A stretch of DNA of 64,000 nucleotides from an uncultured Bacteroidales bacterium (GTDB lineage Bacteria; Bacteroidota; Bacteroidia; Bacteroidales; WCHB1-69). Each line of letters starts with the position of its first letter. Positions within the stretch are counted from its first letter, which is position 1. The position numbers were made by a program, and so were the translations under genes. The notes under the pieces were generated by a model that made no database searches, was not told the DNA's origin, and saw only the letters and a list, made by a program, of their open reading frames with translations. The DNA lies in contig ONCM01000001.1 in NCBI GenBank assembly GCA_900316305.1, forward strand, positions 3,380 through 67,379. Direction: 5' to 3'. This document shows, in pieces, positions 2,796 through 54,360 of this stretch.

Positions 2796-3935
2796 TTATT
2801 TGAATAAATTACCGGCGATGACCATTCTCTGGACCTCTGAGGTGCCTTCGTAGATCTCGGTGATCTTGGCGTCGCGCATCATGCGCTCCACGGGATATTC
2901 GCGGGTGTAACCGTAACCGCCGTGGAACTGCACAGCCTTGGTGGTCACCTCCATCGCGGTCTCCGCGGCGAACAGCTTGCAGCGGGCAGCCTCGACGGCG
3001 TAAGGTTTGTGCATATCTTTATTATAAGAAGCCTCGCGCACCAGCAGACGAGCGGCCTGAATCTTGGCGTCCAAGTTGGCCAACTGGAACTGCGTGTTCT
3101 GGAAAGCGCCGATGGGCTTGCCGAACTGTTTACGTTCCTTGACGTATTTAACCGTCTCATCCAAAGCACCTTGTGCGATACCGAGCGCTTGAGCGGCGAT
3201 ACCGATACGACCACCGTTCAGGGTGTTCATAGCGATTTTGAAGCCCTTGCCCTGTTCGCCGAGGAGGTTCTCCTTCGGGATGCGGCAGTTTTCGAAAATC
3301 AGCTCGCAAGTTGCGGAACCACGGATACCCATCTTCTTCTCCTTCTTGCCGATGGAGAAACCGGGAGTACCTTTTTCAACGATGAAAGCGGAGATGCCCT
3401 TCGTGCCCAACTCCTTGTTGGTCATGGCCATCACCACATACACATGCGCGTAACCGGCGTTGGTGATGAAAATCTTCGTGCCGTTGAGCACCCATTCGTC
3501 ACCGTCCAACACGGCGGTCGTCTGCTGCATGGCAGCGTCCGTACCGGCGTTGGGTTCCGTAAGACCGAAAGCGCCGATCCATTCGCCGGCAGCCAATTTC
3601 GGTACATATTTCATCTTTTGTTCTTCCGTTCCATATTCGAGTATCGGGTTGATACACAGCGAGGTGTGAGCCGACACGATGACGCCAGTGGTGGCGCACA
3701 CGCGGGAGAGTTCCTCCACGGCCATCGAATACATCTGGTTGGTGCCGCCCTGTCCACCGTATTCCACCGGCACAGGGATGCCCATAATACCTATCTTGGC
3801 CATTTTCTCGACCGTCTCCATCGGGAAACGCTCCTGCTCATCCACTTCTGCGGCGAGCGGCTTGACCTCGTTCTCCGCAAATTCGCGGATCATCTGTAAG
3901 AAGAGTTCTTCTCTCTTTGATATTCCAAAATCCAT
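2796..3935 (-). CDS. bcd: short-chain (butyryl-type) acyl-CoA dehydrogenase
   Basis: 379 aa and alignable by eye along its full length to clostridial Bcd (MDF..REFAENEVKP, GLTEPNAGTDA, YEGTSEVQ). The gene order is bcd-etfB-etfA. Confidence 0.88.
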   Translation of the reverse strand: MDFGISKREELFLQMIREFAENEVKPLAAEVDEQERFPMETVEKMAKIGIMGIPVPVEYGGQGGTNQMYSMAVEELSRVCATTGVIVSAHTSLCINPILEYGTEEQKMKYVPKLAAGEWIGAFGLTEPNAGTDAAMQQTTAVLDGDEWVLNGTKIFITNAGYAHVYVVMAMTNKELGTKGISAFIVEKGTPGFSIGKKEKKMGIRGSATCELIFENCRIPKENLLGEQGKGFKIAMNTLNGGRIGIAAQALGIAQGALDETVKYVKERKQFGKPIGAFQNTQFQLANLDAKIQAARLLVREASYNKDMHKPYAVEAARCKLFAAETAMEVTTKAVQFHGGYGYTREYPVERMMRDAKITEIYEGTSEVQRMVIAGNLFK

Positions 3936-3971
3936 TGTTTATTTGTTTAATTGTTTATTCGTTCTGTACTA

Positions 3972-4043
3972 CCCCACACTGCGCTTCGCTTGTGTGGGGT
4001 TAATTGCACTTCGTGCGTTTTGTCCCTCCGGGACTGCTCAAGG
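3972..4043. repeat. CCCCACAC REP-like three-hairpin element, copy 1
   Basis: CCCCACACtgcgcttcgcttGTGTGGGGTTAATTGCACttcGTGCGTTTTGTCCCtccGGGACTGCTCAAGG, lying between the CoA-transferase gene and bcd. Confidence 0.85.
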
Positions 4044-4051
4044 AATAACGG

Positions 4052-4072
4052 CTAACTACTAACTGCTAACTA
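4052..4072. repeat. heptamer array CTAACTR x3
   Basis: ctaacta ctaactg ctaacta. It contains the stop codon of 4070..4732. Confidence 0.85.
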
Positions 4073-4805: not shown

Positions 4806-4833
4806 ATAACCTATAACCAATAACCCATAACCA
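4806..4833. repeat. heptamer array ATAACCN x4
   Basis: ataacct ataacca ataaccc ataacca, in the 5' region of the CoA-transferase gene. Confidence 0.85.
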
Positions 4834-11831: not shown

Positions 11832-12803
11832 ATGAAATACATCTACATTACCAATGGTCGGGCCGACAAGGTGCCGCAATATCAGGAGCTCTACGGCCAG
11901 TTGAAGGAGACACCGCACCCGCACGAGGTTTACACCACCTTGGGCGAGGGCGACGCGACGCGTTTCGTGCGGCTTTACTGCGATCTGCACCCCGAGGAGG
12001 AGGTCTGTTTCGTGGCCTGTGGCGGAAACGGCGTCATCATCGAGGTGGCCACGGGTTTGGTGGGATATTCAGAATATCTGGCGTCGTATTCTCAAAAGGC
12101 TACCGCCTTCAATTCTGAATCCAAGAAACAAAAATCGAAATTCACCATGGCCATTCTTTACATCGGTGGCACCACGAAAGATTTCTTAATCAACTTTCCG
12201 GGACGCAACTTCTTCAGTGTAAAGGAGATGTTGGCGGGCACCGTGACTCCCGTGGATATCATCCGGGTGAACGACAGCTACTCCCTGAACGTGTGCAACA
12301 TCGGATTCAACTCGAAGGTGGCCTCCCGAGCCAACGAGCTCGTCGCCAAGGGGAAGACAGCCCACGAGGCCTACACGCGGGGCGTGGTGAACGCCATCCT
12401 GACAAGCCGCTTCAACCGCATCAAGATAACAGTGGATGGCGAGCGTATCACCCGAGGCCACATGGTGCTATGCACCCTCGCCAACGGGCGGCGCGTGGGC
12501 GGCGAATTCAACTGCGCACCCAATGCGAAAATCGATGACGGCCTCATCGACGTGTGCCTCTTCCGCAGCATGAGCCTGTTGCGACTCCTGATGCTGATCC
12601 CCCTCTACCGCAGTGGCGAACACATCGGCAGCAGACTGGGCAAGAACAAAATCATATACCGGCAGGCCCGCGAGGTGGAAGTCAGCAGCAAGGACCTCAT
12701 CGACGTTTATCTCGACGGCGAGCTTCTCACCGGTTCCCGCTTCGAAGTCAAGATTCTGCCGGGAGCCGTTCCGTTACGACTACCACCAGTCAACGGTCAA
12801 TAG
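11832..12803 (+). CDS. diacylglycerol-kinase-fold lipid kinase-like protein (YegS/BmrU family) with a variant nucleotide motif
   Basis: Layout resembles DAGK_cat: MKYIYITNGRADK...VACGGNGVIIEV (canonical GGDGT). The ATG at 11832 is preferred over the upstream TTG at 11802. Confidence 0.65.
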   Translation: MKYIYITNGRADKVPQYQELYGQLKETPHPHEVYTTLGEGDATRFVRLYCDLHPEEEVCFVACGGNGVIIEVATGLVGYSEYLASYSQKATAFNSESKKQKSKFTMAILYIGGTTKDFLINFPGRNFFSVKEMLAGTVTPVDIIRVNDSYSLNVCNIGFNSKVASRANELVAKGKTAHEAYTRGVVNAILTSRFNRIKITVDGERITRGHMVLCTLANGRRVGGEFNCAPNAKIDDGLIDVCLFRSMSLLRLLMLIPLYRSGEHIGSRLGKNKIIYRQAREVEVSSKDLIDVYLDGELLTGSRFEVKILPGAVPLRLPPVNGQ

Positions 12804-12837
12804 TCAATAGTCAAAGGTCAATGGTCAAAGGTCAGAG
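12789..12837. repeat. heptamer array GTCAANR x7
   Basis: gtcaacg gtcaata gtcaata gtcaaag gtcaatg gtcaaag gtcagag. It includes the stop of 11832..12803. Confidence 0.9.
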
Positions 12838-13930: not shown

Positions 13931-14040
13931 GGACGATGAAAGGCGATGAAAAACGATGAAGGACGATGAAAAACGATGAAGGACGATGAAAAACGATGAA
14001 GGACGATGAAGGACGATGAAAAACGATGAAGGACGATGAT
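13931..14040. repeat. 10-bp tandem array (RRACGATGAA) x11
   Basis: ggacgatgaa / aaacgatgaa units in unbroken register, with an A-tract in every other unit or so. Confidence 0.95.
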
Positions 14041-14056: not shown

Positions 14057-14105
14057 TTGGAACCTGGAACTTGGATCTTGTAACTTTGACATCCCGAAAC
14101 TTGAA
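14057..14105. repeat. heptamer array TTGGAAC-like x7 (degenerating)
   Basis: ttggaac ctggaac ttggatc ttgtaac tttgaca tcccgaa acttgaa. Confidence 0.8.
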
Positions 14106-17266: not shown

Positions 17267-17297
17267 AACTTGGAACTTGGAACCTGAAACTTAAAAT
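17263..17297. repeat. heptamer array CTGAAAC/TTGGAAC x5
   Basis: ctgaaac ttggaac ttggaac ctgaaac ttaaaat. The first unit holds the TGA stop of 16178..17266. Confidence 0.9.
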
Positions 17298-20865: not shown

Positions 20866-20868
20866 TTT

Positions 20869-20924
20869 TTATGGTTATTGGTTATTGGTTATTGAAGTTT
20901 ATGGTTTATAGTTTATAGTTTATA
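20869..20924. repeat. heptamer array TATTGGT -> GTTTATA x8
   Basis: ttatggt tattggt tattggt tattgaa gtttatg gtttata gtttata gtttata. Confidence 0.9.
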
Positions 20925-20934
20925 GGGATGGACA

Positions 20935-20990
20935 CTTTAAACTTTAAACCTTAAACTCTAAACTCTAAACTCTAAACTCTAAACTTTAAG
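20935..20990. repeat. heptamer array CTYTAAA x8
   Basis: ctttaaa ctttaaa ccttaaa ctctaaa x4 ctttaag. It contains the stop of gmhB. Confidence 0.9.
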
Positions 20991-21542
20991 CCCATCATAA
21001 TTTTTCGCAAAATCCAATAGATTATTATAATGTAATGATGTCAATTTTGCAATCTCCTCGTATTCGCCGGGGTGTTTGGCGCCGACGTGGACGGGTTGGA
21101 TGCCAGCGTTGACGGCAAATTGGATATCGGAGAGACTGTCGCCGACCATCACGGAGTCGGCGAAGTCGATGTCGGGGAAGTCGGCTTTGGCCTGCAGCGC
21201 CATCCCAATCTCGGGTTTCCGACAACCACAGCCCGTCCCTGCTTTGTGCGGACAACAATAGACGGCGTCCAACGGGGTGAGGTTCTCCTCGAAGGTAATC
21301 CGCATCCGGCGGTGGATATCCTCAATATCTTCCATCTTGCAAATACGCTTGGCCACACACTGCTGGTTGGTGACCACGATAATATGACGGAACTTCGGCC
21401 GCAGCCACTGCATGGCGGTCAGCACCCCCGGAATCAGCTGAAATTCCTCCGGCTTGCGCACGTACCCGCCCACAATCTGCACGTTGATAATGCCGTCTCT
21501 ATCAAGGAATAATGTATTCATCATCTTTTCATCGTTTTTCAT
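20979..21542 (-). CDS. gmhB: D-glycero-D-manno-heptose 1,7-bisphosphate phosphatase (HAD-IIIA)
   Basis: LFLDRDGIIN, VVTNQ, the Zn-binding cluster CCPHKAGTGCGCRKP and GDSLSD. The first 6 codons (MKNDEK) are repeat-encoded, so the start may instead be ATG 21524 or 21521. Confidence 0.75.
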   Translation of the reverse strand: MKNDEKMMNTLFLDRDGIINVQIVGGYVRKPEEFQLIPGVLTAMQWLRPKFRHIIVVTNQQCVAKRICKMEDIEDIHRRMRITFEENLTPLDAVYCCPHKAGTGCGCRKPEIGMALQAKADFPDIDFADSVMVGDSLSDIQFAVNAGIQPVHVGAKHPGEYEEIAKLTSLHYNNLLDFAKNYDGLKV

Positions 21543-21583
21543 CGTTCATTCATCGTTTTTCATCGTCTCATCGCTTCATCGCC
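21517..21583. repeat. ~10-bp tandem array TTCATCGTTT-like x7
   Basis: Same family as 13931-14040 in reverse orientation. It spans the antiporter stop and the gmhB start. Confidence 0.9.
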
Positions 21584-23302: not shown

Positions 23303-23308
23303 TTTTAA

Positions 23309-23399
23309 CGGTTATAGGTTAAAGGTTTATGGTTTATAGTTTATAGTTTATGGTTTATGGTTTATGGTTAATGGTCAATGGTCAATAGTCAATGGTTAA
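23309..23399. repeat. heptamer array (TGGTTTA/TAGTTTA -> TGGTCAA) x13
   Basis: 13 units in one 7-bp register. It contains the stop of 23389..24285. Confidence 0.95.
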
Positions 23400-24285
23400 C
23401 AGTGAGGATGCCGAAGCATTTGCCACGGTTCGTCATCTGGCAGACGCGAGTGTCACCGATGACGACGGGCGGGTTGATTTCCTCGTGGGAGTGACCGCCG
23501 ACAATCACATTGATACCGGGCACTTGGCGGGCGATTTCGAAGTCGTTATCCGTCATCGTGGTGTCCACACCGAGATGCGAGAGACAGACGATCAGGTCGC
23601 ATTGCTGACGTTGCAGTTCCGCCACCATGTCGCGGGCGACCTGGAACGGATTGAGGTAGGTAACCTCGCGGGCGTTTTGCGGTGACGTGTAGCCATCAAG
23701 GTTCACCCCGAGTCCGAAGATGCCGATTTTATGACCACCGCGCTCAATAATAACGTAGGGTTTAATCACTTTCGTCAGTTTCTTGTTGGCGAACTGGTAG
23801 TTAGCGCACACCACCGGGAATTTGGCGGTCTTGAGTCGTGCGGCAAGAGCTGCGGAGCCGTTATCGAACTCGTGGTTGCCCAACGTGGCTGCATCGTAAC
23901 CCATGGCATTCATCAGATTCACCTCCACATAGCCCTTGAAAAAGTTGAAATAGGGGGTTCCCTGCGAGAAATCGCCAGCGTCGAGCAGCAGCGTGTAGGG
24001 ATTTTCCGCCCGCACCTCACGGATGGCCGCCTCCCTCCGCAGCGCCCCACCCACATTGACGTCCTCCTTGTAGGAATAGGGATCAATCTGGCTGTGCGTG
24101 TCGTTCGTGTGCATGATCACGAGCGGCTGAGCCTGCAGGGAAACGAACACGAATAGACTTAGCACAAAACATATTACATATTTCGCATCTAACGAGCTCT
24201 TGCCAATAACTACCCCGCCCTTCGGGCACCCCTTCTTAAAAGAAGGGGAATTGTCCTTCGGCCGAATTATATATTCATCATTCAT
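23389..24285 (-). CDS. metallophosphoesterase (5'-nucleotidase/UshA N-terminal-domain type)
   Basis: MHTNDTHS, GDFSQGTP and LGNHEFD, plus a signal peptide. The start is uncertain because the first ~25 codons lie on a dispersed hairpin element. Confidence 0.7.
   Translation of the reverse strand: MNDEYIIRPKDNSPSFKKGCPKGGVVIGKSSLDAKYVICFVLSLFVFVSLQAQPLVIMHTNDTHSQIDPYSYKEDVNVGGALRREAAIREVRAENPYTLLLDAGDFSQGTPYFNFFKGYVEVNLMNAMGYDAATLGNHEFDNGSAALAARLKTAKFPVVCANYQFANKKLTKVIKPYVIIERGGHKIGIFGLGVNLDGYTSPQNAREVTYLNPFQVARDMVAELQRQQCDLIVCLSHLGVDTTMTDNDFEIARQVPGINVIVGGHSHEEINPPVVIGDTRVCQMTNRGKCFGILTVNH
24206..24268 (-). repeat. ~60-bp three-hairpin element, copy A
   Basis: The minus strand reads CGGCCGAAGGACAATTCCCCTTCTTTTAAGAAGGGGTGCCCGAAGGGCGGGGTAGTTAT. 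It overlaps the annotated N-terminus of 23389..24285. Confidence 0.8.
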
Positions 24286-24329
24286 AATTCATAATTATAT
24301 TCTACATTCTTCATTCTACATTCTACATT
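24274..24329. repeat. heptamer array TTCATAA -> CTACATT x8
   Basis: ttcatca ttcataa ttcataa ttatatt ctacatt cttcatt ctacatt ctacatt. It spans a start codon (24285) and a stop codon (24328). Confidence 0.9.
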
Positions 24330-26361: not shown

Positions 26362-28986
26362 CTACTTCACGATTTCCAACATCCGGTCCCCCACTCCGAT
26401 GTTATAGCCTTCGGAGAAATAGATGATGTTGCCTTTCTTGTCTATAACAAAGCACATCGGGCTCCTTTTTCCCAGTTCTCTACCCAAGGCTTTCGAGAAG
26501 ATTTCAACGAGTTCCGCATAGCCTTCCTCAATTACGGTCAGATTCTTAGGTTGCCCAGTTTCACTCTTCCAGGTTCCCTCTTTCTTGACGAAAAACATCG
26601 GTCCGTTCCAAGATTCGTATCCCTCCTGCTTAGCGGCCACCTCCTTCATCAGGTGATTGACGGGTTCGGTGCCGGGCGTGCCCAGACAGAGGATAATGTG
26701 CTGTTTCTTACTGGATTTTAAGATAGAAGAAAGCGTGCGACCACCCACTTCGATTTTCTTCAAATTGATGATTCCATAGACACCGAGTGGTAGAGATGAA
26801 TCTTGGATTTTGCGGAAGAAATCAATATAACGTTCAGTTGTGTCTTTTGTCACGTTGAAAAACTGCATTTGCGAAAAGACGCTGCCGTCGTCGAAACGTT
26901 TCCCGAGGGAAAGACAATAATATCCCGCAGGAACGGAAAGCACGATGGGATTGGTCTCCACACGCGGGTCGTTCTCAAAGTCGAAACTCACAAACTCCCC
27001 GTTCTCAAAGCGTTGCAGCGTGTATTGTGTGTAATAGCCCATCTTGTTGGGATTGTGCAGGATAAGCGTTTTATACTCCTCAATGGGCTTTTCCTCGAAA
27101 GTCACCAAGTTCCATTTGCCGTTCTCCCACGCATATATTTCGTTAGAGGCATTGTCCAAATAACAGGGTTTGTTCAACGCACGGCAAAGCGCTACGAAGA
27201 AAATATCGCGGGAGTGGGCGTCTGCCCGATTGAAACGTATAACGCCTACTGGACTGATCGGACAGTTATAATAGTTGCACTCATTGTCCACCACAATGGC
27301 CCTCTTGACGAAATCATAAATTGCTTTTAAGGAACGGTCCTCATCAAACAAATGAAAGCCGCGACTCATTACACCCCGCCAACCACGAATCAGTTCATTG
27401 GAAATTCGTGCCGGCAAAATGCCTTTGAAATAGACATCTAACGGATAGTCACCCTCGTGGTAGTAAGTGAGCTGTCTTTCCAAGGTCTGCCACTTCGTAT
27501 CGCGCAAATCCTTATCCGACAATGCGTTGACAAATTCTTTCAAATAAAGTCCGTCCTCCTTCTTGTCATATTTTTGCAGAAATTGGATGATTTCAAGGTA
27601 GTTACCCTCGCTCCGGCGCACGATGTCGTACAGTTCCTCGTCGGTGAAGTACTCGTTTTTCAGGTGCGCTTTCACCCACGCTTCCGTGGGGAACGTGGCA
27701 CGGTAGGCCTCGCGCAAAGAGTCCTCATACTGCTTGCGCTGGTCGCAACGCGCCTGACGGGCGGCATCCGGCGCGGGAATGTCAGGATTGCCCACGGGCG
27801 GCACAATGGTGAAATCCACATAATCATCCAGCAATTCCATCTTTTCCCAAGGTTCTTCTTTCAACGTTTTTTCTTTCGGTATAAACACAATGGTTGGATC
27901 ATTTTCAACACGACAATCCACCTTGTAGAAAGTGTACTTGTCGTCTTTGCTGACCCACACCAGCAGGTCGCCCTTGCCTGTGACGAGCGAGGCCTGACCA
28001 TTCTCGTCGGTCAACTTGGCGGCCAACGTGTAGTATTCGGCGTAGTTGTAGAGTTTGAAACGCACCAAGGCATCCTTGACGGGCTTTTGCTGCTCATCGA
28101 CCACCGTAATGGTAAGATGCACCGTATCAGCGTAATTGGACAATACATTGATGCAGGAATAGTACCGCGTCTTCTTGTTGACCTCTTCGGGACCGTCATA
28201 GCGACCGAAGACGTTGGTGTGTACCATCATGGTGCGCGTGGAGGGATAGGCGAACCAGCCCATGTTGAGGTCGGGGTCGGGCTCGCAGGCACCGAGAAAC
28301 CACCACTTGCCATCGACCCAGACCTCAACCCAAGCATGGTTGTCGTCGCAGTGCGCCCAACGCGGGGTGTAACACTGGCGGGCGGGAATGCCCACGGCAC
28401 GGAGAGCCGTCACCGTGAGGGTACTCTCCTCACCGCAACGTCCGTGCGAAGTCTTCAACGTGGCCAACGGTGCAGAAGTCCGCACGTCAGCTGGCTGATA
28501 ATCAACGTATTCGTGACACCAGTGATTCACCTCCAACGCAGCGTCGTACATGCTCATGTCCTTAATGCGGTCCTTCAGCTGGTGGAAGATATACGACCGC
28601 GCGGTGTCTAAGTTCTCGTTGTTCACGCGATAAACCACCACGAAATGGCGGAAGATGTCGTCGGGAATGGTCTTCCCCCACGAGAAGGTATTCCGCGCCT
28701 CCAACGCCACCTTCACCTGATCCTCGAAAAACTCGAAATCATAGTCAGCGAGGTCGCTCTGCGGCATATAAGCATACAAAAACGTAAGATACTGCGCCAT
28801 ATCGCGACTCTGGATATCGGACATGATGCGATAATTAGAAATCTTCTCATATATATTTTGCGACACCCCGGGACGGTTTTGACAATCCAGGTACACCGAA
28901 CTCCAGTAGTCGTCCTGAGCCACAGCCGATGAGGACAACAAGCAGAACAACAGACAATTAACAATGACAAACAATTTTTTATTCAT
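26362..28986 (-). CDS. transglutaminase-like domain protein, secreted, 874 aa
   Basis: Signal peptide and a Cys-His-Asp core (HGRCGEES..., DNHAWVEVWVDGKWWFLGACEPD). Confidence 0.75.
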   Translation of the reverse strand: MNKKLFVIVNCLLFCLLSSSAVAQDDYWSSVYLDCQNRPGVSQNIYEKISNYRIMSDIQSRDMAQYLTFLYAYMPQSDLADYDFEFFEDQVKVALEARNTFSWGKTIPDDIFRHFVVVYRVNNENLDTARSYIFHQLKDRIKDMSMYDAALEVNHWCHEYVDYQPADVRTSAPLATLKTSHGRCGEESTLTVTALRAVGIPARQCYTPRWAHCDDNHAWVEVWVDGKWWFLGACEPDPDLNMGWFAYPSTRTMMVHTNVFGRYDGPEEVNKKTRYYSCINVLSNYADTVHLTITVVDEQQKPVKDALVRFKLYNYAEYYTLAAKLTDENGQASLVTGKGDLLVWVSKDDKYTFYKVDCRVENDPTIVFIPKEKTLKEEPWEKMELLDDYVDFTIVPPVGNPDIPAPDAARQARCDQRKQYEDSLREAYRATFPTEAWVKAHLKNEYFTDEELYDIVRRSEGNYLEIIQFLQKYDKKEDGLYLKEFVNALSDKDLRDTKWQTLERQLTYYHEGDYPLDVYFKGILPARISNELIRGWRGVMSRGFHLFDEDRSLKAIYDFVKRAIVVDNECNYYNCPISPVGVIRFNRADAHSRDIFFVALCRALNKPCYLDNASNEIYAWENGKWNLVTFEEKPIEEYKTLILHNPNKMGYYTQYTLQRFENGEFVSFDFENDPRVETNPIVLSVPAGYYCLSLGKRFDDGSVFSQMQFFNVTKDTTERYIDFFRKIQDSSLPLGVYGIINLKKIEVGGRTLSSILKSSKKQHIILCLGTPGTEPVNHLMKEVAAKQEGYESWNGPMFFVKKEGTWKSETGQPKNLTVIEEGYAELVEIFSKALGRELGKRSPMCFVIDKKGNIIYFSEGYNIGVGDRMLEIVK

Positions 28987-29015
28987 AATTCATTATTCAT
29001 AATTCATAATTATAA
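28981..29015. repeat. heptamer array ATTCATA x5
   Basis: attcata attcatt attcata attcata attataa. It contains the start codon of 26362..28986. Confidence 0.9.
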
Positions 29016-29721: not shown

Positions 29722-29790
29722 CCCCACACTGCGGCTTACGCCTTGTGTGGGGTTAATTGCACTCCGTGCGTTTTATCTCTTCGTGCTTCC
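29722..29790. repeat. CCCCACAC REP-like element, copy 2 (3' part truncated)
   Basis: CCCCACACtgcggcttacgccttGTGTGGGGTTAATTGCACtccGTGCGTTTTatctcttcg... Confidence 0.85.
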
Positions 29791-29792
29791 CA

Positions 29793-29870
29793 CCCCACAC
29801 TGCGCTCCTTCGTCGCTTGTATGGGGTTAATTGCACTCCGTGCGTTTTGCCTCTTCGAGGCTGCTTAAGG
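29793..29870. repeat. CCCCACAC REP-like element, copy 3 (tandem with copy 2)
   Basis: CCCCACACtgcgctccttcgtcgcttGTATGGGGTTAATTGCACtccGTGCGTTTTGCCTCttcGAGGCTGCTTAAGG. Confidence 0.85.
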
Positions 29871-29884
29871 AAGATGTTTTAATA

Positions 29885-30931: not shown

Positions 30932-30952
30932 ATTTTGAAATAGCTATGTTGA

Positions 30953-30987
30953 GTTAGCAGTTAGCAGTTAGTAGTTAGTAGTTATTC
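30953..30987. repeat. heptamer array GTTAGYA x5 (left arm)
   Basis: gttagca gttagca gttagta gttagta gttattc. Confidence 0.9.
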
Positions 30988-30998
30988 GGCATCGGAGC

Positions 30999-31033
30999 TT
31001 AACTGCTAACTTCTAACTGCTAACTACTAACTA
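30999..31033. repeat. heptamer array CTAACTR x5 (right arm, inverted relative to 30953-30987)
   Basis: ttaactg ctaactt ctaactg ctaacta ctaacta. It contains the stop of 31031..32620. Confidence 0.9.
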
Positions 31034-32620
31034 TTTTAATATGTTTCCAAGTATGTCCCTCGAAATCTCCCTCGTGATTGTTCTCGTTGCCGCAGAGGTG
31101 GTATTTTTGATGACCTTCTCCTTGGTGGACGTTTTGGACTTGGTCTTCTTGCCGGTCACCTTGTCGCTGACGGCGGTGCCCAAAGCGGAGGCGATGGTGG
31201 CGGTTATGGCCGTGATGACGGCCTTGATCACCTTGCCGAGGACGCCCTGCTTCTTGGAGGATTTCTTTTCGGAAGCCTTTTCCTCTTTGGCGGCTTCGAT
31301 TTCCGTTTTCTCTTGCTCTTCAATAGCCAATGCTTCTTCGGTTTCCTTGAGTAGGATTTCAAAGGCGCTCTCGTTATCTACGGGAGTGTCGTATTTGCCA
31401 TAAACACGGCTCTGTTTGATGATATCGAGACGCTGACCTTCGGTGATGGCACCGATCTGTGACAGCGGGAAGAGTACCTTTGCACGTTGCACAATGCCGG
31501 GAGCACCCTTCTCGTCGAGGAAACTGACGAGCGCCTCGCCGGTCTCCAAATTCATGATGGCCTCGTCGGTCTTAAACGCCGGATTGGCACGGAAAGTGTC
31601 GGCGGCGGCACGCACGGCCTTCTGATCCTTGGGCGTGTAGGCGCGCAAGGCGTGTTGGATGCGATTGCCCAACTGTCCGAGGATGTTGTCGGGAATGTCG
31701 GTCGGATATTGGGTGATGAAGTAGATACCCACACCCTTGCTTCGGATCAGGCGGATGACCTGTTCAATCTTGTCAACCAACGCTTTGGAGGTATCCTCGA
31801 ACAACGTGTGCGCCTCGTCAAAGAAGAAGACGAGCTTCGGTTTGTCGAGGTCGCCGACTTCGGGCAGCGTGGAGTAGAGTTCGGAGAGCATCCACAACAG
31901 GAACGTACTGTAAAGCTTGGGCTGCATCATCAGCTTGTCGGCGGCGAGCACGCTCATCACGCCCTTGCCGTTCTCGGTCTGAATGAGATCGTAGATATCG
32001 AAACTCGGTTCCCCGAGGAACTTGTCCGCACCTTGCGCCTCCAACTGCAGCAACGCACGTTGGATGGCACCGATGGAGGCGGTGGAGACGTTTCCGTACT
32101 TCATCGTATATTCTTTGGCATGTTTGGAGACATACTCCAACATCGCGCGCAGGTCTTTGAGGTCGATGATCATCAGTCCGCGCTCGTCAGCGATGCGGAA
32201 GACGATGTTGAGGACACCGTCCTGCGTCTCGTTGAGACCGAGCAGACGGGAGAGCAGCTGCGGTCCCATCTGGCTCACCGTGGCTCGGATCGGATGGCCT
32301 TCCTCACCGAAAACGTCGTAGAAGCGCACCGGACAAGCCTGGAACTCAGGGTTCTCGATGCCGAATTCGGGCAGGCGTTTCTCTATAAAGCCGCTCATCG
32401 CGCCCGTCTGGCTGATGCCGGAGAGGTCGCCCTTCATGTCGGCCATGAAACAAGGGACACCAATTTGAGAGAATGTTTCGGCCAGCACCTGCAGACTGAC
32501 GGTCTTGCCCGTGCCCGTAGCACCGGCAATCAAACCGTGACGGTTGGCCATTTTAGATTGAATACTGAGCGCACCCTCATCGCAGTGCGCCACATAAAGT
32601 CCGTGATCGTTTGTGTACAT
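31031..32620 (-). CDS. HerA-like ATPase (DUF853/YjgR family)
   Basis: [40 protein letters not shown] closely mirrors the E. coli YjgR N-terminus. The C-terminal tail is Lys/Thr-rich. Confidence 0.8.
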
Positions 32621-32626
32621 ATTTTT

Positions 32627-32787
32627 AATGGTTATTGGTTATTGGTTATTGATAGTTTATAGTTTATGGTTTATAGTTTATAGTTAGTAGTTCGTAGTTA
32701 GCCGTTGCCATTCATAATTCATAATTCATAATTCATAATTATTCTACATTCTTCATTCTACATTCTTCATTCTACATTCTTCATTTC
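32627..32787. repeat. 23 consecutive heptamers in one register, morphing through five motif families
   Basis: The sequence of families is attggtt -> gtttata -> gttagta -> ttcataa -> acattct/tcattct, spanning 161 bp = 23 x 7. It contains the stop of 32753..33373. Confidence 0.95.
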
Positions 32788-33373
32788 TCACAACTATCGC
32801 CTTCAGCGTCATAAACATAATCTTAACGTCCACCCAGATCGACTGTTCCTCAATGTATTGCAGGTTGAGGGCGAGTTTGTCGGGCATGATTTCGTGGATG
32901 TAGGTTTCTTCGGGGTTATCGGAGGCGGCGAGGATCTCGTTCTCGTTGACGTAGCGGATGGAGGCGTAGTCGGTGAGGCCGGGGCGCACCGTAAGCACCC
33001 GCATCTGCTCGGGCGTGTAAAGGTCCACGTACTTGCGCACCTCAGGACGCGGTCCCACAATGCTCATCTCTCCTTTCAGGATGTTGAGGAACTGCGGGAA
33101 CTCATCGATCTTGTACTTCCGGAGGAACGTGCCCGTCTTGGTGATGCGCGAATCGTGGTCGCTCACCGTAATCTGGCTCCCTTTGTCGGCATCCGTACAC
33201 ATCGTACGGAACTTATAGAGCTGGAAATCAACATTATCGCGCCCTACCCTTTTCTGCTTGTATATCACATGTCCCCGTGAATCTATCACGATGGCCAAGG
33301 CGATCAGCAGTCCGAACGGAATGCCGATGACCAGGACAACCAGCGAGAAGAGTATGTCAAAAATACGTTTCAT
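32753..33373 (-). CDS. undecaprenyl-phosphate sugar phosphotransferase (Bac_transf family)
   Basis: N-terminal TM segment, then KFRTM, DEFPQFLNILKGEMSIVGPRPE and RPGLTDYASI. The last ~9 codons and the stop are encoded by the heptamer array. Confidence 0.85.
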   Translation of the reverse strand: MKRIFDILFSLVVLVIGIPFGLLIALAIVIDSRGHVIYKQKRVGRDNVDFQLYKFRTMCTDADKGSQITVSDHDSRITKTGTFLRKYKIDEFPQFLNILKGEMSIVGPRPEVRKYVDLYTPEQMRVLTVRPGLTDYASIRYVNENEILAASDNPEETYIHEIMPDKLALNLQYIEEQSIWVDVKIMFMTLKAIVVRNEECRMKNVE

Positions 33374-34846: not shown

Positions 34847-34880
34847 TTTATACTATTTTTCCATTTTAATTTTGAACCTG

Positions 34881-34888
34881 CAAAGATA
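34881..34888 (-). promoter_or_regulatory. -7 box TATCTTTG for the GWxTD gene
   Basis: The plus strand reads caaagata, 35 nt upstream of ATG 34846. Confidence 0.45.
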
Positions 34889-34937
34889 CAATTTTTGCAT
34901 TATATATTTCCTGCAAATTTGCCCTGTTTAAAATAAA

Positions 34938-34966
34938 TGTAGAGACGTGCCATGGCGCGTCTCTAC
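34938..34966. terminator. GTAGAGACG-family hairpin, copy 3
   Basis: tGTAGAGACGTGCCATGGCGCGTCTCTAC, downstream of the glyQS stop (35016, minus strand). Confidence 0.6.
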
Positions 34967-34980
34967 GATGGGGTATCGGT

Positions 34981-35010
34981 TGTAGAGACGTTTCATGAAA
35001 CGTCTCTACA
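34981..35010. terminator. GTAGAGACG-family hairpin, copy 4
   Basis: tGTAGAGACGTTTCATGAAACGTCTCTACa, a perfect palindrome 6 nt from the glyQS stop. Confidence 0.65.
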
Positions 35011-35015
35011 GGGGG

Positions 35016-36532: not shown

Positions 36533-36560
36533 GGTTATGGGTTATCGGTTATTGAAGTTT
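36533..36560. repeat. heptamer array GGTTATN x4
   Basis: ggttatg ggttatc ggttatt gaagttt. Confidence 0.8.
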
Positions 36561-36574
36561 ACAGTGATTTGACA

Positions 36575-36644
36575 TTCATCGTTTTTCATCGTTTTTCATC
36601 GTTTTTCATCGTTTTTCATCGTCCTTCATCGTTCTTCATCGTCC
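36575..36644. repeat. 10-bp tandem array TTCATCGTYY x7
   Basis: ttcatcgttt x4, then ttcatcgtcc, ttcatcgttc, ttcatcgtcc. T5 tracts are phased at 10 bp. Confidence 0.95.
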
Positions 36645-38470: not shown

Positions 38471-38505
38471 CGGTTTCAAGTTTAAGGTTTCAGGTTTCAA
38501 TTTTT
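38471..38505. repeat. heptamer array AGGTTTC-like x5
   Basis: cggtttc aagttta aggtttc aggtttc aattttt. Confidence 0.85.
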
Positions 38506-38519
38506 TGGAGTTATGTCAC

Positions 38520-38547
38520 TGGTCAAAAGTCAATAGTCAATGGTCGA
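38520..38547. repeat. heptamer array TRGTCAA x4
   Basis: tggtcaa aagtcaa tagtcaa tggtcga. Confidence 0.85.
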
Positions 38548-39961: not shown

Positions 39962-40030
39962 CTATTCTACATTCTTCATTCTACATTCTTCATTCTACAT
40001 TCTACATTCTTCATTCTTCATTCTACATTA
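39962..40030. repeat. heptamer array ACATTCT/TCATTCT x10
   Basis: Read directly in the sequence. The last unit contains the stop of cdd. Confidence 0.95.
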
Positions 40031-42632: not shown

Positions 42633-42917
42633 CTGTTGGCTTTTAGCTATTGGCTGTTGGCTATTGGCTTTTGACCATTAACCATTGACCATTAAACATT
42701 AACCATTGACCATTAAACATTAAACATTAAACATTAAACATTAAACATTAAACATTAAACATTAAACTCCTAAACTTCTAAGCTTCTAAACTACTAAGCT
42801 TCTAAACTACTAAGCTTCTAAACTTCTAAGCTTCTAAGCTCCTAAACCCCTAAGCGTTAACCGTTAACCGCCATCCGTTAATAATATTCTACATTCTACA
42901 TTCTTCATTCTACATTT
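42633..42917. repeat. ~285-bp composite array: heptamers (CTRTTGG, CCATTRA, ACATTAA), then 8-mers (CTNCTAAR x11, 42767-42854), then heptamers (CGTTAAC, TACATTC)
   Basis: Counted unit by unit. It starts 1 nt after the stop of 40623..42632. Confidence 0.95.
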
Positions 42918-42922
42918 TTTTA

Positions 42923-42930
42923 TATATTTG
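42923..42930 (+). promoter_or_regulatory. -7 box TATATTTG upstream of pepO
   Basis: Lies 60 nt upstream of ATG 42990. Confidence 0.35.
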
Positions 42931-42935
42931 CCGTT

Positions 42936-42961
42936 CCCCTAACCTAGGGGCGTTTTTATTT
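42936..42961 (+). terminator. hairpin plus T-run at the end of the 285-bp repeat array
   Basis: CCCCTA-acc-TAGGGG followed by cgTTTTTaTTTT. It overlaps the predicted pepO transcription start region, so its role is ambiguous. Confidence 0.4.
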
Positions 42962-42989
42962 TAGAATACTGATTTTTAATCAATTAGAA

Positions 42990-45056
42990 ATGAAAAAAAA
43001 CATTATGATGGCGAGTGTTTTGGCACTCGGTTTTATTTTTTTCGCTAATACAACGAGTATGGCAACCCCTGCAAAACCCAAAAAACCGAAAAAACAGACT
43101 TCCGGTGTTGCGGCCAGCAACCTGGACAAGACGGTGAAACCCACCGCTGATTTCTATCAGTACGCTTGTGGCGGCTGGATGGCTGCCAATCCGCTGGGCG
43201 ACGAGTACGCCCGTTACGGCAGCTTCGATGTGCTGGCCGAGAACAACCAGGAGCAGCTCAAAGAGTTGGTGACCAAGATTGCGTCGCAGAAAAACGCTCC
43301 CGGCTCCATTGAGCAGAAAATCGCGGACTTCTACAACACAGGTATGGCCACTGGCGACCTCGACCGTGGCGGTGCCAACCCCATCCAACCCGAATTGAAA
43401 ACCATCAACAGCCTCCAACGCGACGGTCTTTCCGTGCAGCTCGCCCAGATGCTGATGAACGGCCAAACGCCCTTCTTCGCCCTGTTCGGTTCCGCCGACC
43501 CTGACAACAGCAGCATGACCATCGCCCACATTTGGCAGTCGGGTCTCGGTATCGGCGACCGCGACTACTATTTGGATAAGGACCAGCAAAACATTAGAGA
43601 TGAGTACGTTAAGTTGGTGGCGAAGATGCTCGGCATGTCGGGCTACAGCGCGATGGCCGGCTTCAAAGGCTACGAGACCGAAATGGCCAACCGCGTGATG
43701 GCCTTGGAGACCCTGCTGGCGCAATACGCCATTGACAAGACCGTGCTGCGCGACCCCTACCAGACCATCCACAAATGCACGCCCGCGGAATTCCAACAGC
43801 TGATCCCCGCCCTCAATGTGCAACAATATCTGAAAACCTTGAACTTGAAGGTCGACACGCTCAACGTGAGCCAACCCACCTATATCCAAGGCGTGAACAA
43901 CATCCTGGAAGTCATCGACTTCAACGTGGTGAAAGCCTATCTCGCCTGGAACGTTATCCGCAACAGCGCCGGCTATCTGAGCGATGAGTTCGTGGATGCC
44001 AGCTTCGATTTCTACGGCAAGACCCTTTCCGGCCGCAAGGAGAACCGTCCGCGCTGGAAACGCGTCATCGACAACCTTGACGAATGTCTCGGCGAGGCCG
44101 TCGGTCAGATGTACGTCAAAAACTACTTCCCAGCAGAGGCCAAGGAGCGCATGGAACAGCTGGTCAAGAACCTGCAATGGGCTCTCGGCGAGCGCATCAA
44201 GGCTTCCACCTGGATGACCGACCAAACCAAGAAGAACGCCCTCGACAAGTTGGCCGCTTTCACCGTGAAGATCGGCTATCCTGACAAATGGCGCGACTAC
44301 AGCGGTCTGACCATCGGTACGGAGAGCTATTACGCCAACGTGAAGAACTCCCGCCAATTCGACATGGCCTACAATTTGAGCAAGATCGGCAAGAAAGTCG
44401 ATCCCACCGAGTGGCAGATGACCCCGCAGACGGTGAACGCCTACTACGATCCCACCACCAACGAGATCTGCTTCCCCGCCGGCATCCTGCAACCCCCGTT
44501 CTTCGACATGAACGCGGATGACGCCGCCAACTACGGTGCCATCGGCGTGGTGATCGGCCACGAAATGACCCACGGCTTCGACGACCAGGGCCGCAACTAC
44601 GACAAGGACGGCAACCTCGCCGACTGGTGGACCGAGAAGGACGCTGAAATCTTCAAGGAGAAAGCGCAACTCATTGTAGATCATTTCAACAGCATCGAAG
44701 TCGCTCCTGGCACCTATGCCAACGGTGAGTTTACCTTGGGTGAGAACATTGCCGACAACGGTGGTTTGAACGTATCCTACACCGCTTTCCAGAAGGCCAA
44801 GAAAGACGGCCAGATCAAAGGCGAAATGGACGGTTTCACCCCCGAGCAGCGTTTCTTCCTGGCTTACGCTGCCGTCTGGGCCGCCAACATCCGCGAAGCT
44901 GAAATCCTGCGCCGCACCAAGAGCGACCCGCACGCCCTCGGCCGCTGGCGCGTCAACGCCACCTTGCGCCACATCGACCCCTTCTACGAAGCCTTCAACA
45001 TCCAACCCGGCGACCCGATGTACATGGCACCGGAAAAACGCTCGCATATTTGGTAG
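42990..45056 (+). CDS. pepO: M13 family zinc metallopeptidase (PepO/endothelin-converting-enzyme-like)
   Basis: HEMTHGFD zinc motif, plus ENIADNGG and NAYYDP, in a 688-aa protein with a signal peptide. Confidence 0.9.
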   Translation: MKKNIMMASVLALGFIFFANTTSMATPAKPKKPKKQTSGVAASNLDKTVKPTADFYQYACGGWMAANPLGDEYARYGSFDVLAENNQEQLKELVTKIASQKNAPGSIEQKIADFYNTGMATGDLDRGGANPIQPELKTINSLQRDGLSVQLAQMLMNGQTPFFALFGSADPDNSSMTIAHIWQSGLGIGDRDYYLDKDQQNIRDEYVKLVAKMLGMSGYSAMAGFKGYETEMANRVMALETLLAQYAIDKTVLRDPYQTIHKCTPAEFQQLIPALNVQQYLKTLNLKVDTLNVSQPTYIQGVNNILEVIDFNVVKAYLAWNVIRNSAGYLSDEFVDASFDFYGKTLSGRKENRPRWKRVIDNLDECLGEAVGQMYVKNYFPAEAKERMEQLVKNLQWALGERIKASTWMTDQTKKNALDKLAAFTVKIGYPDKWRDYSGLTIGTESYYANVKNSRQFDMAYNLSKIGKKVDPTEWQMTPQTVNAYYDPTTNEICFPAGILQPPFFDMNADDAANYGAIGVVIGHEMTHGFDDQGRNYDKDGNLADWWTEKDAEIFKEKAQLIVDHFNSIEVAPGTYANGEFTLGENIADNGGLNVSYTAFQKAKKDGQIKGEMDGFTPEQRFFLAYAAVWAANIREAEILRRTKSDPHALGRWRVNATLRHIDPFYEAFNIQPGDPMYMAPEKRSHIW

Positions 45057-45111
45057 TTAGTAGTTAGTAGTTAGCAGTTAGCAGTTAGCAGTTAGCAGTT
45101 AGTAGTTAAAC
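45053..45111. repeat. heptamer array GTTAGYA x8
   Basis: gttagta x2, gttagca x4, gttagta, gttaaac. It begins within the pepO stop codon. Confidence 0.95.
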
Positions 45112-45191: not shown

Positions 45192-46142
45192 ATGTCAGAA
45201 AAGAGAAAACTCGCCGTCATCGCATTCGGCGGCAACGCATTACTGAAAAGTAAACAAAGAGGCACCTATCAGGAGCAGATCGAGAACGTCACGGAGACCT
45301 GCCGCAACCTGATCCCGCTGATCGAGAACGGCTACAACATCGTCATCGGTCACGGCAACGGTCCGCAAGTGGGCAACGTCATGCTGCAGCACAAGGCCGG
45401 CAAGGAGACCTTCCAAGTGGAGGACATGCCGCTGAACTTCTGCGTGGCCGAGACGCAAGGCTCCATCGGCGCGCTCATCGAAGAGGGTTTGCGACACATT
45501 TTCGCCGAAAAGGGCTGGGAGAAAGACACCGTCACGCTGCTCACGCACGTGGAGGTCGATGCCAACGACCCGCTCTTCCAGAACCCCACCAAGCCCGTCG
45601 GTCCGTACGTCTCCCGCGAGGAGGCCGAGCAGTACCAAGAGGAGACCGGCGACATCTACCGTGAGGACCCGAAGGGCAACGGCTGGCGCAAGGTGGTAGC
45701 TTCCCCGAAGCCCATCCGCATCCAGAACATCAAGCTGGTGAAGCAGTTGGCCGAACAGGGCATCATCGTCATCACCGTCGGCGGCGGCGGCATCCCCGTA
45801 GCCATGAAAGACGGCTATCTGAAGGGCGTGCAGGCGGTCATCGACAAAGACTTAGCCTCTGCCATGACAGCTATGGAAATCGGCGCCGACGAGTTCTACA
45901 TCCTCACCGACGTACCGAAGGTCTATATCAACTTCCGCAAACCCGATGAGAAGGCATTAGACACTATCACGGTAAGCGAAGCTAAGAAATATCTGGAGGA
46001 GAAGCACTTCACCGAGGGCTCCATGGCCCCGAAGGTGCGCGCCGCCATCCAATACGTCGAGAAGAGCGGCAAAACCTGCATCATCACCGAGGCCGGCAAG
46101 CTGCACGACCCGAACTGCGGCACACGAATCATCGCGGGGTAA
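45192..46142 (+). CDS. arcC: carbamate kinase
   Basis: KLAVIAFGGNALL and VIGHGNGPQVG. The start is set at MSEKRK (ATG 45192). Confidence 0.88.
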   Translation: MSEKRKLAVIAFGGNALLKSKQRGTYQEQIENVTETCRNLIPLIENGYNIVIGHGNGPQVGNVMLQHKAGKETFQVEDMPLNFCVAETQGSIGALIEEGLRHIFAEKGWEKDTVTLLTHVEVDANDPLFQNPTKPVGPYVSREEAEQYQEETGDIYREDPKGNGWRKVVASPKPIRIQNIKLVKQLAEQGIIVITVGGGGIPVAMKDGYLKGVQAVIDKDLASAMTAMEIGADEFYILTDVPKVYINFRKPDEKALDTITVSEAKKYLEEKHFTEGSMAPKVRAAIQYVEKSGKTCIITEAGKLHDPNCGTRIIAG

Positions 46143-46183
46143 CCTCCCACGCGGGTTCTTCACCGCAGACCACTAAACACGAA

Positions 46184-46215
46184 ACGCACGGACATTGTAT
46201 TGGCCGTGCGTTTTT
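46184..46215 (+). terminator. intrinsic terminator after arcC
   Basis: ACGCACGG-acattgtattgg-CCGTGCGT followed by TTTT. It lies between convergent genes. Confidence 0.7.
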
Positions 46216-46260
46216 ATTCTGTATCGGGAAACAGGATTCTCCCAAACAGTTCCATTCCGT

Positions 46261-47028: not shown

Positions 47029-47036
47029 AGCATCAC

Positions 47037-48128: not shown

Positions 48129-48162
48129 ATTTCTTCAAATAAGCTGCAAAATAACATAAAAT

Positions 48163-49392: not shown

Positions 49393-49393
49393 A

Positions 49394-50566: not shown

Positions 50567-50591
50567 GATGCAATGAATATGATGAACGGAA

Positions 50592-54333: not shown

Positions 54334-54360
54334 CGTCTGTGGATTCAAAATTCAACGCGG

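Follow-up and report, generated by a model that had tools for sequence, protein, structure and literature searches.

How does a tandem repeat keep a single seven-base register while the motif being repeated changes several times, and does such a repeat do anything for the genes that it separates? These questions are raised by positions 32627-32787 of a 64,000-nucleotide stretch of DNA from an uncultured Bacteroidales bacterium (contig ONCM01000001.1 of GenBank assembly GCA_900316305.1, positions 3,380 to 67,379; this whole stretch is called the window below), where an array of heptamers lies between a sugar transferase gene and a gene for a HerA-like ATPase. Our answer to the first question is that the tract is a compound heptanucleotide variable-number tandem repeat (VNTR), or "long simple sequence repeat" (long SSR), remodeled by slipped-strand mispairing or unequal exchange. 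To the second we give a more guarded answer: at a probability of roughly 0.55, we favor the explanation that such slippage-driven VNTRs persist as structure-free, orientation-constrained spacers or leaders between cistrons. Judged by its sequence, the window derives from a rumen Prevotellaceae (Prevotella-like) bacterium; its HerA-like protein is 92-93% identical to proteins from metagenome-assembled genomes of rumen Bacteroidales/Prevotellaceae, and about 80% identical to that of Xylanibacter ruminicola. Prevotellaceae are dominant rumen bacteria.

The tract at 32627-32787 and its alleles

Read in steps of seven, the 161 bases form exactly 23 heptamers in a single register. From 32627 the order of units is AATGGTT, ATTGGTT (twice), ATTGATA, GTTTATA/GTTTATG (four units), GTTAGTA, GTTCGTA, GTTAGCC, GTTGCCA, TTCATAA (four times), TTATTCT, and three ACATTCT TCATTCT pairs, the very last unit being TCATTTC. 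Self-identity is 0.78 at lag 7, 0.71 at lag 14, and at most about 0.44 at the remaining lags, and Tandem Repeats Finder (TRF) recovers the sub-arrays equally. The pattern described by a first-pass annotation of the window, 23 heptamers holding one register while the motif changes, is thus reproduced exactly. The array takes up 118 of the 132 nt of the intergenic gap, and its parts and neighbors are as follows.

32627..32787, minus strand: compound heptanucleotide array of 23 units, occupying the spacer from the transferase stop to the HerA-like start and covering the final 35 nt of the transferase coding sequence (CDS)
32627..32654, minus strand: start-proximal sub-array, sense ATAACCA in three copies (G-free), followed by AAAAAT and the HerA ATG; 2-4 copies in strains
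32655..32682, minus strand: sub-array, sense ACTATAA/ACCATAA in four copies (G-free); 4-7 copies in strains
32683..32710, minus strand: GTTAGYA-type units (sense ACTACTA/ACTACGA; 1-3 copies in strains) and two junction units, sense AATGGCA ACGGCTA, constant in all strains
32711..32745, minus strand: sub-array, sense AATTATG in four copies (C-free, with an ATG and a TGA every 7 nt), and one junction unit; 4, 5 or 12 copies in strains
32746..32787, minus strand: stop-proximal sub-array, sense GAAGAAT GTAGAAT in three pairs (C-free); 2-10 pairs in strains (2, 3, 4 or about 10)
32753..33373, minus strand: upstream gene, bacterial sugar transferase (PF02397), with its stop codon inside the array
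31031..32620, minus strand: downstream gene, HerA-like ATPase (PF05872), with its ATG six bases past the array; protein identical in 10 conspecific contigs

The stop-proximal sub-array encodes the non-conserved tail of the transferase, CRMKNVE, together with its TGA stop. The codons of the conserved C-terminus that precedes it (...NEE, AATGAAGAA) match the GAAGAAT unit, and to judge from this match they apparently seeded the sub-array locally.

Alleles of the tract were found by looking up the exact HerA protein, which returned ten conspecific contigs from independent rumen metagenomes, all with the identical 529-aa protein. Between fixed anchors, the tract measures 155, 169, 211, 218 or 302 nt in these contigs (22-43 heptamers), and every difference in length is a multiple of 7. 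The sub-arrays vary in copy number independently of one another over the ranges listed above, the junction units AATGGCA ACGGCTA are unchanged, and every allele leaves the transferase at 206 residues. Three contigs match the window exactly, and the 155-nt allele is common to several, from independent samples.

The same behavior is seen beyond this gap. When 15 conspecific loci, about 1% divergent in coding sequence, were aligned pairwise with the window, all 10 comparable array gaps proved to be length-polymorphic (indels of 7, 14, 21, 35, 42 or 98 nt); from proS to the GWxTD gene, a 169-nt gap with no array kept a constant length across strains, with one single-nucleotide polymorphism. Length change among strains, at the target and at other array gaps, is thus a high-frequency change in the number of whole units. 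Array loci are the fastest-changing sequence between these strains and, since every locus examined differs, they are ready-made strain-typing markers.

Whole units of 7 or 14 nt are gained or lost, the pattern expected of slipped-strand mispairing or unequal exchange, while the junction units stay fixed and the non-repeat flanks are stable. All units of the tract stem from one array, in which point mutation creates a variant unit and slippage amplifies it locally. The phase stays constant over 23 units because only whole units come and go, and the motif seems to morph because a unit is mutated and then locally amplified. The first-pass annotation had presented the fixed register under a changing motif as something of a puzzle; the pattern stands, and the puzzle does not, as the whole-unit length changes in the strain alleles account for it.

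Arrays in the window and in related loci

Arrays were counted by a lag-identity scan with a strict threshold, and the controls were 20 dinucleotide-preserving shuffles in which coding and intergenic DNA were shuffled separately. The window holds 17 strict arrays of period 7, one each of periods 8 and 10, and five of period 14 (double units), with none at periods 2-6, 9, 11-13 or 15; across the 20 shuffles there was no strict array at any period. The earlier claim that the arrays are pervasive is borne out, as is a frequency far beyond chance. About 91% of the bases in period-7 arrays are intergenic, against 11% of the window. A looser threshold gives 33 arrays of period 7, 8 or 10 across 18 of 47 inter-gene gaps, TRF at a score of at least 30 finds arrays at 19 junctions, and a two-copy threshold marks 20 of 49 gaps as array-bearing versus about 6 in shuffled gaps. 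The first-pass figure of at least 25 intergenic junctions was thus too high, as the 33 arrays fall in only 18-20 gaps of 49. Even so, about 40% of the window's intergenic gaps bear arrays, and several consist mostly of array DNA (79 of 86 nt at 23303-23388; 271 of 357 nt at 42633-42989). Besides the sub-arrays of the target, TRF reports about 45 further short-period arrays, and all ten unit families listed in the annotation were found, recurring at distant loci.

The same detector was also run on 80 related Prevotellaceae loci (1.4 Mb; 81 sequences with the window). It finds 138 period-7 arrays in 53 of the 80 loci, so heptamer arrays are a family-wide phenomenon in Prevotellaceae and are not limited to one region; other periods are represented by 2 (period 5), 13 (period 6), 25 (period 8) and 4 (period 10) arrays. 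Density ranges from 0 to 3.6 arrays per 10 kb, with the window at the high end. Among the 81 sequences, 98 of 144 arrays lie within the 10% of DNA called intergenic and, as in the window itself, non-coding DNA is where units of a length not divisible by 3 accumulate.

The 98 intergenic arrays comprise 57 unit classes. Between genomes there are 67 pairs of arrays with identical units, where heptamers drawn at random from intergenic DNA or matched in composition give 8-14 (31 at most in 1000 trials); within genomes there are 14, against 0.7 expected. Composite blocks recur as well. About 60 nt 5' of the HerA start (32621-32685) nearly match 20866-20925, which lie 5' of an acyltransferase start (20865), and the junction of TTCATAA and ACATTCT units is seen again at 24273-24329. 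The exact junction strings occur once each in the window, even with three mismatches allowed, the copy at 20.9 kb differs by a 1-nt indel, and a 22-nt string from the start-proximal end turns up again in conspecific strains alone, at both loci already known. From such sequence likeness, copying of blocks between loci is possible but unproven.

The principal further arrays of the window are listed here, with fractional copy numbers where units are incomplete.

3935..4071, minus strand: 8-mer TTGTTTAT (2.9 copies) and CTAACTA (2.9 copies)
4806..4832, plus strand: ATAACCA/ATAACCC (3.9 copies), in a divergent gap
12789..12834, plus strand: GTCAATG/GTCAATA (6.6 copies), filling a 37-nt gap
13934..14039, plus strand: 10-mer GACGATGAAA (10.6 copies), right behind the stop of a RelA/SpoT-domain gene; the other two 10-mer arrays share its sense orientation
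17267..17290, plus strand: AACTTGG (3.4 copies), directly past a stop codon; TGGAACT, a related unit, is arrayed at 14058-14080
20872..20989, minus strand: three arrays, TGGTTAT, GTTTATA and ACTYTAA, occupying the gap upstream of the acyltransferase gene, polymorphic among strains; the first two echo the target's start-proximal block, the ~60 nt nearly identical
21517..21566, minus strand: 10-mer TTCATCGTTT (4.8 copies), at the stop of a Na/H exchanger gene; strain L093 has a 21-nt insertion
23310..23393, minus strand: GGTTAAT/GGTTTAT/ATGGTCA array of 12 units in the 86-nt gap named above; strain indels of 14 and 21 nt
24273..24329, minus strand: ATTCATA and then ATTCTAC arrays, filling a 42-nt gap; the junction is nearly that of 32710-32785
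28981..29011, minus strand: ATTCATA (4.4 copies), filling the 29-nt gap from CutC to transglutaminase; alleles of 33 and 40 nt between anchors
30952..31033, minus strand: AGTTAGC (4.7 copies) and TAACTGC (4.9 copies), complementary units in inverted orientation, predicted to form an RNA hairpin of ~30 bp; alleles differ by 7 nt and a loop inversion
36533..36642, minus strand: start-proximal GGTTATG (2.9 copies, sense CATAACC) and stop-proximal 10-mer TTCATCGTTT (6.8 copies, sense AACGATGAAA), between an outer membrane protein gene and proS
38473..38545, no strand assigned: GTTTCAG (3.9 copies) and GTCAATA (3.4 copies), in a divergent gap
39964..40029, minus strand: ATTCTAC/ATTCTTC (9.4 copies), in a convergent gap, abutting a deaminase gene stop; 7-nt deletion in strain L094
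42639..42916, plus strand: TTGGCTA (5 copies), AACATTA (13.4), 8-mer TAAACTTC (11.4), TAACCGT (2.9) and ATTCTAC (4.4), in the 357-nt gap upstream of an M13 peptidase gene; 88-nt deletion in L094
45053..45108, plus strand: GTAGTTA/AGTTAGC (8 copies), overlapping the M13 peptidase gene stop; ~14-nt insertion in L094
51608..51664, minus strand: GGTTTCA (8.1 copies, sense TGAAACC), running over the upstream gene's stop codon

Some side observations belong with this catalogue. From about 46100 to 64000, heptamer arrays are nearly missing, the only one being that at 51608-51664; G+C content drops to 0.37-0.46 at 54-62 kb, and synteny with L094 stops just past an amino-acid kinase gene. This part of the window is likely a strain-variable accessory region. 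Around 24177-24296, a metallophosphoesterase gene is called with 298 aa in the window strain, whereas two conspecific contigs have 266 aa; the 298-aa call extends into the ATTCATA array, the alignments differ there by 92-99 nt, and from the sequences the true start is probably downstream of that array. Finally, a dispersed element of ~71-74 nt (CTTCCTTAAGCAGCCTCGAAGAGGCAAAACGC...GCAGTGTGGGG) is present in two copies at 29730-29884 (minus strand) and also at 11579-11775 of locus L002 and 9846-10000 of L003. Its copy number varies among conspecific strains (indels of 71, 74 and 165 nt) and it occupies other gaps in related species; it looks like a MITE or a repetitive extragenic palindromic (REP) sequence.

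Position, strand and RNA folding

Among the 81 sequences, 68 of the 98 intergenic arrays are in co-directional gaps, although the rate per gap is similar for co-directional (9.8%), divergent (12.1%) and convergent (5.8%) gaps. As a proxy for promoters, we took TAnnTTTG, the -7 motif of Bacteroidetes, where it lies on the sense strand. It is present in 9 of 42 array-bearing co-directional gaps versus 150 of 300 array-free ones (p = 5e-4), and the target gap is without it. Between 28.9 and 36.7 kb, the sole intergenic TAnnTTTG on the gene strand is at 34888, inside a conserved array-free gap. We infer that the genes for GWxTD, transferase, HerA and those downstream form one transcription unit, in which the arrays would be transcribed spacers. 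A positional relation to gene ends, which the annotation had named as a mark of significance, was found: 33 of the 68 co-directional arrays abut or overlap the upstream stop, against 23 under random placement within the gap (P = 0.0016), and in gaps of at least 150 nt, 9 of 27 arrays are at the upstream stop versus 2.6 expected (P = 0.001).

In the gap after proS (34847-35015, minus strand), ahead of a conserved promoter-like TAtcTTTG, there are two copies of a palindrome of the form GTAGAGACG-loop-CGTCTCTAC, which recurs in another gap of L003 (11588-11664). The orthologous site in L001 (7669-7824) has an analogous palindrome, GTAGGGCTG...CAGCCCTAC. Together these look like a family of terminator-like hairpins.

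Orientation with respect to the flanking genes is not random either. On the sense strand, A exceeds T in 45 arrays and T exceeds A in 21 (p = 0.004), with A/(A+T) at 0.59 in arrays versus 0.53 in non-array intergenic DNA. In stop-proximal arrays, the sense strand has more G than C in 20 of 24 (G 24%, C 6%), and array-free gaps have no G/C strand bias. The three 10-mer arrays all read AACGATGAAA/GACGATGAAA in the sense of their flanking genes. On the start side, G-free units of the NATAACC type are found just 5' of the HerA, proS and asparaginase (ansA) starts in three species of the window's clade. The ATAACCA family stops 4-9 nt before the ATG at several genes; TAACTRC arrays are 20-83 nt from starts, or at stops.

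An independent scan of public metagenomes for three tandem copies of ATAACCA gave more than 120 contigs among the matches listed, of which 80 were used as loci L096-L175. These 80 come from very different environments, with a G+C content of 17-66% and arrays of 20-209 nt, and several of their (ATAACCA)n arrays adjoin other heptamer arrays. In this subset of the matches listed, 15 of 19 co-directional gaps with sense ATAACCA have the array closer to the downstream start, and 12 of 14 with sense TGGTTAT have it closer to the upstream stop (Fisher p = 4e-4). When the arrays are compared with the next gene without regard to stop or start position, there is no preference (31 on the same strand, 30 on the opposite one).

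Could this rule be an artefact of how open reading frames (ORFs) are called? Ten arrays were absorbed in ORFs; with 5 near 5' ends taken as exceptions and 4 near 3' ends taken as following the rule, the worst-case table becomes 15,4 / 7,16, in which the rule survives (Fisher p ~0.004, a hand estimate), and we reject that possibility. An exception could also have been explained away at 42984-45047, where accepting a minus-strand 687-aa ORF as a real gene would have rescued the orientation of two arrays. We rejected it: the frame on the plus strand at 42990-45056 codes for an M13 peptidase, while the ORF opposite it scores lower for coding and matches no Pfam family; probably that ORF is just an antisense frame free of stops, not a gene.

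At the RNA level, 60% of the arrays have a minimum free energy of 0 when folded as sense RNA, and the target spacer folds with z = +0.40. The mean z of the arrays against their own dinucleotide shuffles is -0.45, and the idea that direct arrays act as structured RNA is rejected on these values. Initiation regions (-40 to +20) are less structured in genes preceded by arrays than in other genes (-2.6 versus -5.5 kcal/mol, p = 3e-4) and richer in A (49% versus 38%). Prevotella, Flavobacterium and other Bacteroidetes have no functional Shine-Dalgarno (SD) pairing and rely on low structure (PMC3155529, PMC6847099). The weaker structure fits SD-independent initiation, but may simply follow from composition.

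The only stable fold predicted among the arrays is that of 30952-30984 and 31000-31033, where complementary units stand head to head and would pair over about 30 bp as a hairpin (-44.1 kcal/mol, z = -8.3). In L001 the orthologous gap contains a hairpin that is likewise made of heptamers, but from different units; in L003 the gap contains an ordinary palindrome. The loop between the inverted arrays (30985-30999) is in opposite orientation in strains L085 and L089, which suggests inversion by recombination or template switching between the arms. Rfam has no match at any array of the window. The window's sole Rfam match is an Acido-Lenti-1 small RNA at 173-227 on the plus strand (38.5 bits versus a gathering score of 37), into which a perfect direct repeat of 23 nt in two copies (138-183) runs; a scan of the window for tRNA and transfer-messenger RNA returned none.

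Explanations and known repeat classes

Taken together, the reading that we favor runs as follows. Arrays would persist mainly in promoter-less co-directional spacers, where they would be transcribed within operon mRNAs, and constraints at the RNA level would decide which orientation survives. A sense strand that is C-poor and purine- or A-rich after stops, and G-free and A-rich (of the ATAACCA type) before starts, would yield an unfoldable spacer and initiation region. The latter would suit Bacteroidetes, in which initiation proceeds without SD pairing and depends on low mRNA structure. Complementary arrays that meet head to head would give a long hairpin, as at 30952-31033, and changes in copy number would at most tune expression. 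The functional part, an operon spacer or leader that is free of structure, constrained in orientation and may tune expression, is only moderately supported.

Several observations weigh against this reading. The arrays fold like their own dinucleotide shuffles, so composition accounts for their low structure without any need for selection, and the transcription of the arrays, like any effect on translation, is something that we infer. The G-poor rule before starts is not general in Prevotellaceae (G exceeds C in 14 arrays and C exceeds G in 13), being limited to the ATAACCA family and the window's clade, and there are exceptions in orientation, such as ATTCTAC at 42886-42916. Xanthomonas uses SD pairing and yet follows the same orientation rule, and SD-independent initiation is therefore not the general cause. 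The orthologous HerA gap in L003 is nearly without an array, which makes the array dispensable. Gene calls in the related loci were also crude, being longest ATG ORFs with a codon-usage score.

The serious rival is a neutral by-product shaped by purifying selection. Heptamer-biased slippage would litter unconstrained DNA, and the patterns would reflect only the removal of harmful insertions, namely those in promoters, in CDSs or in orientations that extend ORFs. We regard a purely mutational origin of this kind as possible, if on the unlikely side. It sits well with hypervariable, free copy numbers (2-12), with orthologous gaps of related species that have no array, with folding equal to that of shuffles, with the exclusion from CDSs of units not divisible by 3, and with the polymerase-footprint slippage idea of Mrazek 2007, as far as it is quoted in PMC4692102 and PMC4679880. 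C-free units are also rich in stop codons, so ORF ends could yield part of the stop-proximal bias; TGGTTAT, however, is free of stop codons and as the sense unit is still found at stops. Nor does a purely mutational origin sit easily with a unit vocabulary common to species beyond composition, with the less structured and more A-rich initiation regions behind arrays, or with the same orientation rule in three phyla (PMC4692102). A more far-reaching reading, which we consider doubtful, is a cross-phylum "polar spacer" system at the RNA level, in which one and the same double-stranded repeat would be retained with its C-free strand as mRNA after stops and its G-free strand before starts. Intercistronic RNA would in that case evade, for example, Rho loading on C-rich unstructured RNA and favor structure-free, SD-independent ribosome loading. 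If it were true, slippage would provide heritable, finely graded tuning of operon-internal expression, and the shared, restricted vocabulary and copied composite blocks would be a signature of selection for modules. The allele series (2-12 copies per sub-array) and the orientation rule in Bacteroidota, Xanthomonas and Nostoc offer a handle on whether such repeats act at the RNA level.

That restricted vocabulary, and composite blocks with nearly identical junctions at unrelated genes, would also be expected if the arrays were reiterated sites for a sequence-specific DNA- or RNA-binding protein (an iteron-like regulator, a nucleoid protein, ribosomal protein S1, Csp or CsrA) in a regulatory network. 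A place just 5' of start codons is what MacGregor proposed for TAACTGA (PMC4679880), and recO/recF expression in Nostoc is affected by heptamer repeats (bioRxiv 10.1101/2022.06.06.494920). With 57 unit classes among 98 arrays, units that drift inside one tract, copy number unconstrained between strains, no candidate binding protein linked to the arrays and neighbors of unrelated housekeeping function, we find such sites quite improbable. The blocks may instead have spread by copying, either by ectopic gene conversion from array to array or on a small mobile cassette, rather than arising independently in each gap. The near-match at 20.9 kb, the repeated junction at 24273-24329, the excess of identical units within sequences and the presence of GTAGAAT behind a different gene's stop in L002 point that way; the single occurrence of exact junction strings, the indel in the 20.9-kb copy, the local seeding visible at the transferase 3' end and the lack of terminal repeats, target duplications or a transposase make it unlikely overall. 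Contingency loci, in which changes in copy number switch neighboring genes on or off (phase variation), would share the high-frequency length change in whole units, and a sugar transferase is in the neighborhood. We think this very improbable: the target tract lies between stop and start, outside any reading frame or promoter element, the transferase has the same length in all alleles, the gap has no -7 motif, the flanking genes are mostly housekeeping ones (proS, HerA-like, asparaginase, CutC, Na/H exchanger), and ~40% of gaps bearing arrays is far above a contingency set. As for a short-read assembly artefact in low-complexity DNA, repeats are a known source of assembly error and every sequence used is a metagenome assembly, but the chance is negligible, given the same alleles from independent samples and assemblers, differences that are clean multiples of 7 with intact flanks, and arrays that are mostly below 100 nt and generally shorter than reads.

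How do these arrays compare with repeats already described? The first-pass annotation did not recognize them as a known class of element, a view that gives way before several precedents. Heptanucleotide long SSRs are reported by Mrazek et al. (2007, as cited in PMC4679880 and PMC4692102) to be the commonest class of long SSR in most prokaryotic genomes, with slippage proposed as their origin; as cited in PMC4679880, the ten genomes richest in repeats of 5-11 nt belong to Burkholderia, cyanobacteria, actinobacteria and Xanthomonas. As far as that class is described there, the likeness extends to tandem units of 5-11 nt with 7 dominant, lengths beyond chance, an intergenic location and slippage dynamics; the difference is that the window chains many different AT-rich units in phase within one gap. 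Head-to-tail 7-nt units beyond chance, concentration in non-coding DNA and whole-unit polymorphism, which define long SSRs and VNTRs, were all found here.

Contingency SSRs of host-adapted pathogens, by comparison, are mostly built of units of 1-5 nt and are sited within the reading frames of surface or antigen genes or between their promoter elements. Their copy number changes reversibly by slippage; in the window arrays, slippage also changes the copy number and may do so reversibly, but these arrays lie between the stop and start of housekeeping genes. A CRISPR (clustered regularly interspaced short palindromic repeats) array was considered and rejected, because the 7-nt units abut directly with no spacers, in place of repeats of ~24-40 nt with unique spacers of similar length. 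The short tandemly repeated repetitive (STRR) sequences of heterocystous cyanobacteria reportedly have the units CCCCAGT (STRR1), TTGGTCA (STRR2) and CAACAGT (STRR3), a description credited to Mazel et al. 1990. They are alike in being tandem heptamers, intergenic and operon-internal, with many copies per genome, and the phylum differs. None of these units occurs twice in tandem in the window, where ATGGTCA at 23364-23396 is closest; tandem TTTTGAT is not found in the window either.

Tandem heptamers are also on record for the cyanobacterium Calothrix PCC7601, as cited in PMC4692102. The G-rich heptamers of Xanthomonas and Nostoc, GGGAATC and GGGGA(T/C)T, are located between aligned ORFs, frequently over the stop codon; for the most part they are transcribed (Rehm et al. 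2015, PMC4692102). Their G-rich strand is sense within 50 bp after or over a stop and antisense within 50 bp upstream of an ORF, a likeness to the present arrays; they are depleted in CDSs and divergent gaps, enriched between co-directional ORFs and, like the window arrays, variable in length between related genomes, with inverted pairs (PMC4692102). Their units, however, have tracts of three or four G and can form G-quadruplexes (PMC4692102), whereas those of the window are ~72% A+T, and neither strand of the window has a GGGAATC or GGGGATT tandem or phased GGG tracts. In Nostoc, heptamer repeats influence the expression of recO/recF (bioRxiv 10.1101/2022.06.06.494920).

TAACTGA direct repeats and other heptamer "assemblages" are known from Beggiatoaceae and cyanobacteria as well as from a few Bacteroidetes, whose intergenic regions they fill (MacGregor 2015, PMC4679880); in some of the latter, several different heptamer arrays share one region. 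Contigs of draft assemblies are reported to end at repeats of this sort (PMC4679880). The described repeats stand in forward orientation just upstream of start codons, in SD-poor lineages, and a translational role was proposed for them. No two TAACTGA units stand in tandem in the window; TAACTRC, which differs by one base, comes nearest and is present at 236, 4053, 30957-31033 and 45053-45108. In the literature searched, we found no description of such arrays for Prevotellaceae, Prevotella or Bacteroides, and unlike the TAACTGA reports, the strain alleles of the window demonstrate hypervariability directly. The arrays thus belong to a described class, the heptanucleotide simple-sequence repeats, and are not a new kind of element. 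To that class the present locus adds a new lineage with a high density of arrays, population evidence that sub-arrays vary independently by whole units, and an extension of the orientation rule to AT-rich units.

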